This document shows, piece after piece, positions 46,201 through 49,200 of a stretch of 64,000 nucleotides of DNA. Under the pieces are notes generated by a model. It searched no databases and had not been told where the DNA came from. It saw nothing but the letters and a program-made list of their open reading frames with translations. The position numbers and the translations under genes were made by a program. The DNA is from Octopus vulgaris (taxonomy: Eukaryota): NCBI GenBank assembly GCA_951406725.2, contig OX597836.1, forward strand, positions 38,254,001 through 38,318,000, in the 5' to 3' direction. Within the stretch, counting starts at the first letter, position 1, and each line of letters opens with the position of its first letter.

Positions 46201-49200
46201 TGAGGGAGGCCATGGGATTTATGATGTAGAATGGCTGACTCTGTGTCAAAGAGTCAGTCATTATGTTGATGCTTAATTACTGAACTACAATTGTTGAGTG
46301 ATCCATTTTCATTCATTTACATGGAAGCACTAGCCAAATACCAGCTTGAACTCATTGAGCTTCAAAGTAGAGAATCTTTGAGAACTTATAGAGAACTTGA
46401 CCATCTTGACTTTTACAAGAAATTGTATGCCAATTTAGCTAGAAAACTGTTGTGCATGTGGGATAGTACATACTCCTGTAAACAATTCTTTTCATGTATG
46501 AAAAACGTCAAAACTGCTGAAAGAAATAGGCTGAGTGATTGCCATTTAACTAACATTCTTAGAGTAAAGAATAACACCATAAAAGCAGATATTGAGAATA
46601 TCATAAAAGAAAAGCAATGATAATAATCACATTGATTTTATTTTGTGTAAATGTAATTTCATTTTTACTGTCAATAGCACATTATTTTGTATTTATATTT
46701 TTTTATTAAAAAAATTTTATTCACTATATTTTGAACCTTTTAAAAGTTTATATCTTAGTGCCTTTGTGGCGCAGTAAATATACTTAAATTTATAATTTGG
46801 CCCGCGAGGAAAAAAAGGTTGGACATCCCTGGCTTAAAGAATGCAGCCCATTTTAAAGTGCAAATACCATATTGATCTTTAGACCTCATATAATTGCTTA
46901 CAATATAATAAATGCTAATATTGTTCATGCTAATACATATCTGATAGGTATTTGAAATGTTAAGTTTATTTTAAAGAGTTTATTCAATTTTTGTTCTTTT
47001 TTTTGTTTTGGTAGTAATTATATGATTTATGTTCTTTCTCTGTTTTAAGTGAATATACTACTAGTATTTATGTAACTCAAATTGTAATGGTTATGTCTAA
47101 TATTGTCTATGTAATTCTATTTTATCTTGTTTTGTGATACTCCTTTAATTTGTTCTGTCTTGTTTTGGATATATTTTGTCCTGTTTTCTGTTTACCTGGT
47201 TTTTGCAATCGATATTGCTTTTGTGTTTGTTTGATGTTCATCATGAAGTCTGTTTTATGGTTCCTTCTGTGCTATTTGTCCATGTTCATTGGGTAAATTG
47301 TTTATCTTTGATGTTTTTCTATATCTAGCTTTCCATTTAAAATTTGCCTCAGTATGGCAAATCAGGCAATAGTTTGTGTTGTTCAGTTTATTGGGGGATT
47401 CCTTTTGTGCTTGTATTTTATGGTGTTCACATGTTGGTTGTTCTTTGTCTATTGCTGTGTAAATTTAGTCGTCTTTTCTATCAACTCTTTAGCAAACATC
47501 AGAGGGCAATTCTATATTTAAAGAGATGAGGAATTATGTACATTATTTACATTTAATGGACATTTGTCCTCATCTTTGTTGTTAACATGTTTCAGCTGAT
47601 ATACCCTCCAGCTTTCATCAGGTGTCTTGGGGAAATTTCAAACCTGGGTTCTCATTCCTAAGGTAGTTTTCGATGTTGTTGTTGTTATTATTATTATTAT
47701 CATTATTATTATTATTCAGATCACTGCCTGGAATTGAACTCGGAATCTTGGGGTTAGTAGCCTGCACTCTTAACCACTACACCACAGGCATTTGATGTAG
47801 TGGTTAAGAGTATGGGCTACTAACCTCAAGATTCCAAGTTTAATTCCAGGCAGTTACCTGGATAAAAATAATAAGAATAATAATAATATCGAAAACTACC
47901 TTAGGAATAAGAAACCAGGTTTGAAATTTCCCCAAGACACCTGATAAAGGCTGGAGGTTATATCAGCCGAAATGTTGTGTTAACAACAAACAAGATGAGG
48001 ACAAATAGCCGTCAAATGTAAATAGTGTATCAGAGGGCAACTTTTGTCAGTTTGCCCATCATTGTTCAACATTGTTCTGTTTTCAACATTATTCTATAGG
48101 CAGATGCGGGCCAGCAAGTTCTGATATCGTCTTCCTTATTGATTCTTCTGCAAGTGTATCACAAGTAAACTTCAAGAAGATGCTTATGTTTGTAAAAGAT
48201 CTCATATCTGATGCTGATATTGATTCGGTTGTACGTGTTGGGTTATTAACCTTTAATGAACAAGTTACGATACGTTTCTATTTAAATTCCTATACAACAA
48301 AAGACAGTCTGGAAAATGCTATATTAAATATTCCATATGAAGCCGGTACCACCAATACTGCTGATGCTTTAAGGGACATGCGTACTAAAATGTTTGTAAA
48401 AGAAAATGGAGATCGTGTGAATGTACCAAATATTGCGGTCATTCTCACAGATGGTGTTTCAAGTGTAAATAGTGATAGGACTATAATAGAAGCTAAGACT
48501 GCTCAGCGTGATGGAATACAAGTTTATGCAATTGGTATTGACTTGGTTGACACAAGAGAGCTTGATGGAATAGCTTCAACGCCTACTAAAAAGTATCGGC
48601 ATACAGTTCAAGACTTTGAAGAGCTGAAGTATTTAAAACAGAAAATTTTCCAAAAGTTTTGCCCAGAAGGTAAGTTTTTGTTAGATTGTTCAAGTCAATA
48701 CATGACTATAAGCAATACTTATCTAATACATAGTGTGGATGGTCAAATCCAATGCATATATCCTTTGTCTTCTTTTGTCTCTCATTTTAGCATTCCTTTG
48801 TTAAGAAAGTGAAAGGAAATGAGTGAATTATCATGTTGTTAATTAGCAAAGTACTTTAGTTCACAATTACATAAATTTTCTGGAACATATGGATTTATAC
48901 TTGTTGAATTACAATAACCATTGGTTCGTCAATATCCATTAATTCTTTTTTTTTTTTCATTTATAAATACCTAACAACCATGGTATTTGCACTTGCATGA
49001 ATGCTTCATATTTTGCTATTACTTTAATACTATTCATGGTTCAAATATTTAATAAGAGTGAAAGAAGACAATAACTGAGTCTACCAACATAATATCAAGC
49101 AAATAGAATTCTTTTTCTTAAGTCATCTATCCATTTTTCTCCACACACTATTCTTGGGAAAGTGGTGGAGATAAAGTCCTCATGCACTTCCTCCATAGGG

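Follow-up and report, generated by a model that had tools for sequence, protein, structure and literature searches.

The window, a 64,000-nt stretch of the Octopus vulgaris genome, carries five VWA-type motifs on its plus strand (at 22406, 25632, 28515, 48123, and 56775), and comparison of the window with itself brought out further VWA-like exons, so that the host gene resembles one for a multi-VWA matrix protein. About 60 nt before one of the VWA-domain exons, in an intron, lies a 519-bp insertion flanked by two copies of the 12-mer ATCAGAGGGCAA (47498-47509 and 48029-48040). The insertion's two halves are inverted relative to each other; a gapped alignment of 511 nt in the self-comparison shows them 81% alike, and the insertion's RNA is predicted to fold as one long hairpin (-317.7 kcal/mol, z -33). 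The features are as follows.

47498..47509, plus strand: left target-site duplication, 12 bp
47510..47787, minus strand: left arm, pseudo-LTR copy from near tRNA position +3, with tail; 93.5% identical to the family majority, gaps excluded
47510..47539, minus strand: Penelope "tail", about 30 nt, in the left arm only; a continuation of the element's open reading frame (ORF)
47584..47626, minus strand: left copy of the minimal type-I hammerhead; both core boxes kept, damage at the cleavage site and in stem I
47653..47655, minus strand: first ATG of the element ORF (+116 from tRNA +1); mutated in the right arm
47674..47716, minus strand: (AAT/AAC)n microsatellite of the left arm, between head and body
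47730..47739, minus strand: B-box of the left head (tRNA positions 53-62), near consensus
47774..47784, minus strand: A-box of the left head (tRNA positions 8-18), near consensus with one CpG change
47781..47792, no strand: head-to-head junction, a remnant of the family's short palindrome straddling tRNA +1
47781..48028, plus strand: right arm, a copy of the pseudo-LTR running from about -5 as far as the tail-less end; 90.5% identical to the family majority
47793..47803, plus strand: A-box of the right head, damaged (two changes)
47838..47847, plus strand: B-box of the right head, damaged (two changes)
47862..47888, plus strand: (AAT)n microsatellite of the right arm
47936..47981, plus strand: right copy of the minimal type-I hammerhead; altered G8 and a disrupted stem III palindrome
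48029..48040, plus strand: right target-site duplication, 12 bp
48100..48666, plus strand: host VWA-domain exon, borders inferred (Pfam VWA, E-value 5.7e-43)

Outward from the centre, each arm runs through a tRNA-like head, an (AAT)n microsatellite, and a hammerhead-bearing body, with an extra 30-nt tail on the left arm only. A preliminary description had proposed a head-to-head hairpin with a 12-bp target-site duplication and, in each arm, a tRNA-like head and a minimal hammerhead, and these parts were all recovered: inverted arms between the 12-bp copies, A and B boxes located left and right, and the hammerheads at 47936-47981 (plus) and 47584-47626 (minus). Rfam matches in the window region were microRNA-like hairpin noise with no tRNA or hammerhead model among the matches listed, and the best 150 of 185 Rfam matches from 20 family loci were noise of the same kind, again with neither model. 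ARAGORN reported no tRNA in the window, and a search of sequencing contigs for the empty insertion site gave no joint among the matches listed. The feature is a dead head-to-head insertion of two broken pseudo-LTR copies of an abundant Penelope-like element. From its intronic position, the hairpin could give the host pre-mRNA about 240 bp of double-stranded RNA before the exon, a possible editing substrate.

The window also holds other repeats. Inverted-repeat elements at 10634-10878, 36804-37069, and 39789-40195 are AT-rich and MITE-like, and a scan of them for hammerhead cores found none. Copies of another tRNA-headed repeat family, two of them mutually inverted, occupy 35064-35433 and 52003-52999; by its resemblance to such elements, this family is likely a SINE. 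A 208-bp T-rich direct repeat (47108-47315 and 53023-53230) is 90% alike between its copies and appears as two variants in sequencing contigs, and a plus-strand frame at 51064-51435 with a weak Tc1/mariner-type helix-turn-helix match marks a decayed DNA transposon.

The family was surveyed across a genome of 2.8 Gb in 227 contigs. Exact 22-mers taken along the unit from 3' to 5' occur 10,219, 6,546, 2,931, 758, 460, and 66 times genome-wide, and reversed controls of the three commonest gave 0 matches. Calibrating these counts by how often sampled copies retain each word yields estimates of about 24,500, 22,000, 15,500, 2,800, 1,100, and under 200 arms. Copies average 93% identity to the family majority, and no intact young copy was seen among those examined.

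This repeated unit is the pseudo-LTR belonging to an autonomous element of the Penelope/Poseidon type, with a single ORF encoding reverse transcriptase (RT) and a GIY-YIG endonuclease. A coding-like stretch lay just upstream of the head in 3 of the first 30 loci. In 30 loci found by a genome search with an RT fragment, blind to the presence of the head, the head followed the RT–GIY-YIG stop codon by ~30-40 nt on the same strand in 23; with the query locus removed and eight near-identical copies (C31) counted once, this held for 15/22. Conversely, the hammerhead body follows the head in 38 of 40 head-selected loci, so the head is not a free SINE. One locus (L135) joins head, microsatellite, ATG, hammerhead, tail, and ORF in a single open frame, showing that the tail is no more than a further stretch of the ORF. 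The column majority encodes 834 aa from the first methionine, and the complete map reads head, (AAT)n, ATG (+116), hammerhead (+145 to +190), tail (+238 to +271), and the remainder of the 834-aa ORF. The pseudo-LTR, including the first codons, is found on both sides of the ORF, the two sides being seen in different copies, with the 5' side present in L135 and others.

A 569-aa frame in one copy contains RT followed by a C-terminal endonuclease-like region; its RVT_1 match (E-value 2.7e-6) falls just under the Pfam cut-off, and Pfam gave no match to the GIY-YIG domain itself in this frame. The frame is 40% identical over 575 aa to a protein annotated as GIY-YIG (PF01541), and the endonuclease C-x-C and two histidines are present in most copies. 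The closest proteins are 55-68% identical to the element's, and a PDB search returned no solved relative. In most copies of the family the second endonuclease motif is YKG, not YIG. We assigned the element to the Penelope/Poseidon type from its domain order and its apparent lack of the linker zinc finger that the cited passages of PMC8557442 describe for Neptune and Nematis.

Other Penelope-like elements were also encountered. At least two young families in the genome (L243-L262) have intact 770-870-aa frames and many near-identical copies, and are possibly active. Two tandem, near-identical, intact elements of 851 aa with a period of about 3.08 kb and a hammerhead-like motif (L463-L464) sit in a contig of a bacterial metagenome-assembled genome, which likely contains host DNA binned along.

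The preliminary description had interpreted the insertion as a non-autonomous retroelement joining a Pol III promoter to a ribozyme. The tRNA-derived head, the ribozyme, the retroelement nature, and the head-to-head arrangement all stand; the separate non-autonomous element does not, the head and the hammerhead both being parts of the pseudo-LTR of a coding element. An independent SINE or retrozyme borrowing Penelope enzymes, in the manner of schistosome alpha repeats, would account for most copies being short and beginning at the head, and has precedents in schistosome SINE-like repeats with a Pol III promoter and a hammerhead (PMC6765202) and in retrozymes proposed as Penelope derivatives (10.64898/2026.07.22.740005). 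Yet the unit, head included, is the coding element's own terminal repeat and holds its first codons, tandem arrays are absent from the sampled loci inspected, and no feature private to short copies was seen, a variant at hammerhead position N7 occurring in short and coding copies alike. We regard this explanation as very improbable and a separate family as largely refuted. A free-standing SINE was rejected for the same reason, that the head belongs to the terminal repeat.

The hammerhead of the family majority has a 5-bp stem I, CUGAUGA, an extra A, G10.1-C11.1, a 6-bp stem II, and GAAA; stem III is the self-complementary ACGU followed by U, and an NUH cleavage site is present. The preliminary description had likened the motif to the minimal type-I hammerheads with palindromic stem III of Penelope-like elements (PLEs) and had looked to a family consensus for CUGANGA and GAAA; the majority has both boxes, and the published type is matched throughout (PMC4209133). 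Like the metazoan PLE hammerheads of Cervera and de la Pena 2014 (PMC4209133), it combines a 5-bp stem I, CUGANGA, and an extra base before G10.1 with G10.1-C11.1, a 6-bp stem II, GAAA, and a palindromic 15.2-16.2. The ribozyme itself does not differ from these, which in the cited parts of that paper show no upstream tRNA head and occur as dual motifs 100-700 bp apart on opposite strands.

The two hammerheads of the window are both mutated, as had been noticed at the outset. The right copy has A in place of G8 of CUGAUGA and a broken stem III palindrome; the left keeps its core boxes intact and has a 3-nt loss affecting the cleavage site and the 3' strand of stem I. Judged by sequence, the window copies fall short of a minimal hammerhead, whereas the family majority is a standard one. 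The differing but paired stem II of the two window copies had been read as covariation, which turned out to be coincidental: among 119 other arms the closing pair is G-C in 77, G-U in 28, A-C in 6, A-U in 0, and something else in 8. The A-U pair is explained by CpG decay plus an unrelated change, since its U sits at a CpG, and in one family at about 93% identity the power to detect covariation is small. Of 71 arms not selected on hammerhead sequence, 39 have both core boxes unaltered, and 12 have an unaltered core, palindrome, and stem I together. The main non-CpG core variant affects N7, a free position, where 25 of 162 motif matches have A; this is a small sign of constraint in the source elements. 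Copy 5' ends are slightly in excess near the predicted cut, with 5/90 at +184..+191 and 2/30 at +187. Cleavage would occur only as a dimer or with protein help.

Insertions of the family have a consistent architecture. An inverted partner accompanies 52 of 90 arms chosen by a word 3' of the hammerhead. We found both outer ends for 59 of 97 insertions examined, the window insertion included; in 53 of these a single side carries the tail, and 33 have a target duplication of at least 10 nt (spanning 10–18 bp), compared with 1.5% for mismatched flanks. Across 63 pairs, arms from the same insertion have 41 non-CpG variants in common, compared with 7.9 +/- 2.7 when partners are shuffled, indicating that the arms come from one source or were converted later. 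Junction microhomologies are visible by eye in many loci. The sampled loci inspected contained no head-to-tail tandem arrays, all insertions being single or head-to-head. Elsewhere in the window, at 14015-14071, a 33-bp insertion of the same family (14027-14059) sits between 12-bp direct repeats; it consists of an inverted tail-less end joined to a tail end and is the minimal form of the two-ended event. Inversion, a one-sided tail, and a short target duplication are described features of endonuclease-bearing PLEs (PMC8557442, PMC3846280), and the inverted layout of the window pair, for which a Penelope connection had been suggested, fits that pattern. Hairpin and hammerhead alone are ordinary Penelope features.

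The head is the less ordinary part. Its best match among 17 distinct host tRNAs is tRNA-Arg(TCG), with a score of 44 against a maximum of 26 in 300 shuffles, and a profile of host tRNAs matches 4/4 family heads tested (E-values 0.0005-0.006). In tRNA numbering, which it still follows, its A-box lies at 8-18 and its B-box at 53-62, both intact in the family; the boxes were called against their general consensus. The cloverleaf stems are lost, with 2/7, 1/4, 3/5, and 3/5 pairs left, and ARAGORN at its default threshold found no tRNA in 67 heads. Stalling of RT at a tRNA cloverleaf was considered as a source of 5' ends and rejected because these stems are gone.

Most copies end at the start of this head. 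When arms were chosen 3' of the hammerhead, 34 of the 40 reaching +20 ended within -20..+20, an end density near +1 of about 0.021 per nt, compared with 0.0015-0.002 in three other non-repeat bins. With arms picked by the head itself, 31/40 ended within -17..+19 and 9/40 ran into the ORF. The estimated number of arms drops about 5-fold, from about 15,500 to 2,800, across 58 nt at +1, and falls only from 2,800 to 1,100 over the next 350 nt upstream.

The same ends could arise in an ordinary Penelope transcribed by Pol II, if the head of a tRNA-derived SINE or a retrocopied tRNA, carrying an (AAT)n tail, had been inserted in the pseudo-LTR as a passenger and the short palindrome at +1 triggered fold-back or microhomology joining. 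Three observations counted against Pol III lean this way: a second pile-up of 5' ends lies within the microsatellite (29 of 74 at risk, some possibly mapping losses), so that sequence features alone can create pile-ups; of the 34 ends near +1, 26 belong to arms with an inverted partner, being inversion junctions at the short palindrome; and only 2 of 30 copies bearing the ORF N-terminus start at +1. In rotifer Penelopes, palindromes mark pseudo-LTR 5' ends, with no tRNA mentioned in the cited part of the paper (PMC3846280). Against a passenger, 8 of 13 non-inverted arms reaching +20 still end within -14..+13, and 10 of 14 short head-picked copies scored as non-inverted end at -7..+2, although two or three of these hold a short inverted piece. 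Moreover, the boxes were kept though the tRNA stems were lost, the head is without its body in only 2 of the 40 loci, and the T-run depletion described below would be left without explanation. We consider a passenger head unlikely.

Transcription by Pol III terminates at runs of at least four T (T4 runs), and the sense strand of the 2.9-kb majority unit has none. Expected numbers are 2.8 under synonymous shuffling (P 0.032), 3.1 under codon shuffling (P 0.025), and 4.4 under base shuffling (P 0.009); a stricter run-extension test against three control ORFs gives P 0.063. Individual family copies carry 0.5 T4 runs per kb, with no site recurring in more than 9% of copies. In three other Penelope families of the genome, 20/20 ORFs among the matches listed have 4-8 T4 runs; these control families have similar A/T content and the same A-rich strand bias, and show no head in the flanks viewed. 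The majority of an older Penelope family has 4-6 T4 runs in about 2 kb. Among distant relatives from 80 metagenome loci, 0/49 with at least 1.5 kb of coding sequence are T4-free (the lowest has 0.6 per kb), and none of the 80 has a significant tRNA-like match just after the ORF. A strong tRNA-like match at one of them (L269) was set aside: located several hundred bases on the 5' side of that locus's matched ORF, it appears to be an unrelated copy of a SINE or tRNA. A scan of genome contigs gave three distant loci with 5-7 T4 runs each and no tRNA-like match, and a scan of viral contigs for relatives found none. The T4-free result is moderate and suggestive, coming from a single family.

Given a tRNA-derived segment at the start of most copies and a gene without T4 runs, the repeat is likely transcribed by Pol III, and the entire element may be as well. 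Our preferred reading, to which we give a probability of roughly 0.6, is that the window holds a dead pseudo-LTR pair of an autonomous Penelope/Poseidon-type element whose tRNA-Arg-like A/B-box opening likely serves as a Pol III promoter. A bolder version, which we put forward tentatively and would not bet on, is a coding retrotransposon transcribed entirely by Pol III, one that captured a tRNA-Arg promoter, purged T4 runs from its 2.5-kb ORF, translates an uncapped RNA, and sheds SINE-like copies. An uncapped Pol III RNA would be a poor mRNA, which counts against Pol III as the maker of the coding RNA, in the preferred reading too.

Differing from the preferred reading only in the source of the ORF RNA, the promoter may have a dual use: Pol III would make only short pseudo-LTR RNAs, copied in trans as SINEs are, and Pol II would make the coding RNA from upstream or tandem copies, the missing T4 runs being chance or strand bias. 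Short arms do exceed ORF 5' ends about 100-fold, the T4 P values are just 0.03-0.06, and autonomous LTR elements at least are expected to need Pol II (PMC10886601). Long copies bear on this from both sides. Among the 30 copies with the ORF N-terminal region (L343-L372), two start at tRNA +1, as few as dual use would suggest, and one passes it, so that 2/3 of the long copies reaching the head start there; because long cDNAs rarely reach any 5' end, this fits a start shared by short and long RNAs. The control families with the same A-rich strand bias all keep their T4 runs, which also speaks against dual use, and we find it doubtful. Eight of the same 30 long copies stop at +213..+226, adjoining the tail-less end of the 5' repeat.

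If the preferred reading is right, insertion might proceed as follows. Pol III would start at about -7 to +2, the head thereby setting the RNA 5' end, and, meeting no T4 run, could read on through the ORF. The element protein would nick the two strands of an AT-rich target at sites separated by 10-15 nt, and reverse transcription would be primed at two internal RNA sites, the tail end and the tail-less end. Both steps have a parallel in the anole element PAc, which in vitro nicks and extends both target strands and begins reverse transcription at two internal sites bounding the tail (PMC11167929). Both cDNAs would extend toward the 5' end of the RNA and be joined at microhomologies, in many cases at the palindrome around +1; alternatively, one cDNA would fold back there. 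One cDNA per start site, primed from both nicks, would yield two arms placed head to head, a single tail, and a short duplication. The roughly 20,000 short arms, behaving as a SINE built into the element, could stem from short RNAs or from 5' pseudo-LTR templates.

Octopus tRNA-derived SINEs of tRNA-Arg origin were reportedly described by Ohshima and Okada in 1994, and OR1/OR2 are cited as CORE-SINEs; likened by description only, these share a tRNA-derived head with the present family and likely come from the same animal group. The closest described elements are PAc of Anolis (PMC11167929) and Pen2a_Av of the rotifer Adineta (PMC3846280). Like the octopus element, they have a single RT–GIY-YIG ORF of about 840 aa, a pseudo-LTR of about 220-270 bp that includes the first codons, a hammerhead overlapping the ORF start, an optional 30-40-nt tail, an inverted pseudo-LTR, a short target duplication, and a 5'-junction palindrome. 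As far as the cited parts of those papers go, the octopus element differs in its tRNA-derived A/B-box head, in 5' ends at its +1, in its T4-free ORF, and in the YKG form of the second endonuclease motif in most copies; for Pen2a_Av, TATA/Inr motifs are proposed, and tRNA and Pol III go unmentioned in the part cited (PMC3846280).

Parts of the arrangement recur in its nearest parallels, which do not encode proteins. Schistosome alpha repeats have a Pol III-type promoter followed by a hammerhead (PMC6765202), and non-LTR retrozymes are short Penelope-related ribozyme units (10.64898/2026.07.22.740005); both are described as non-coding and tandem, whereas the octopus unit forms the terminal repeat of an element that encodes protein, and it is inserted as inverted pairs. 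Cassandra, Helenus, and Ajax likewise carry a Pol III promoter derived from a small RNA inside a terminal repeat, but they are non-autonomous LTR elements whose autonomous partners are argued to need Pol II (PMC10886601). Our literature searches turned up no Penelope with a tRNA or Pol III head, and the family may be catalogued in Repbase, Dfam, or SINEBase. What we have not found described is a Penelope that encodes protein and whose pseudo-LTR carries a tRNA-derived, promoter-like head; the inversion, the tail, the duplication, and the hammerhead all have precedents.

Retrotransposons that encode proteins are expected to rely on Pol II, and a head derived from tRNA is a hallmark of non-coding parasites. 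A Penelope with a built-in head would supply a missing route to the birth of SINEs, one sequence being both autonomous element and SINE, and if the T4-free ORF reflects Pol III read-through, its transcript would be a natural mRNA made by Pol III. The about 20,000 arms also allow the poorly known insertion cycle of Penelope elements to be tested, through the one-sided tail, the single-source arms, and the microhomology joins.
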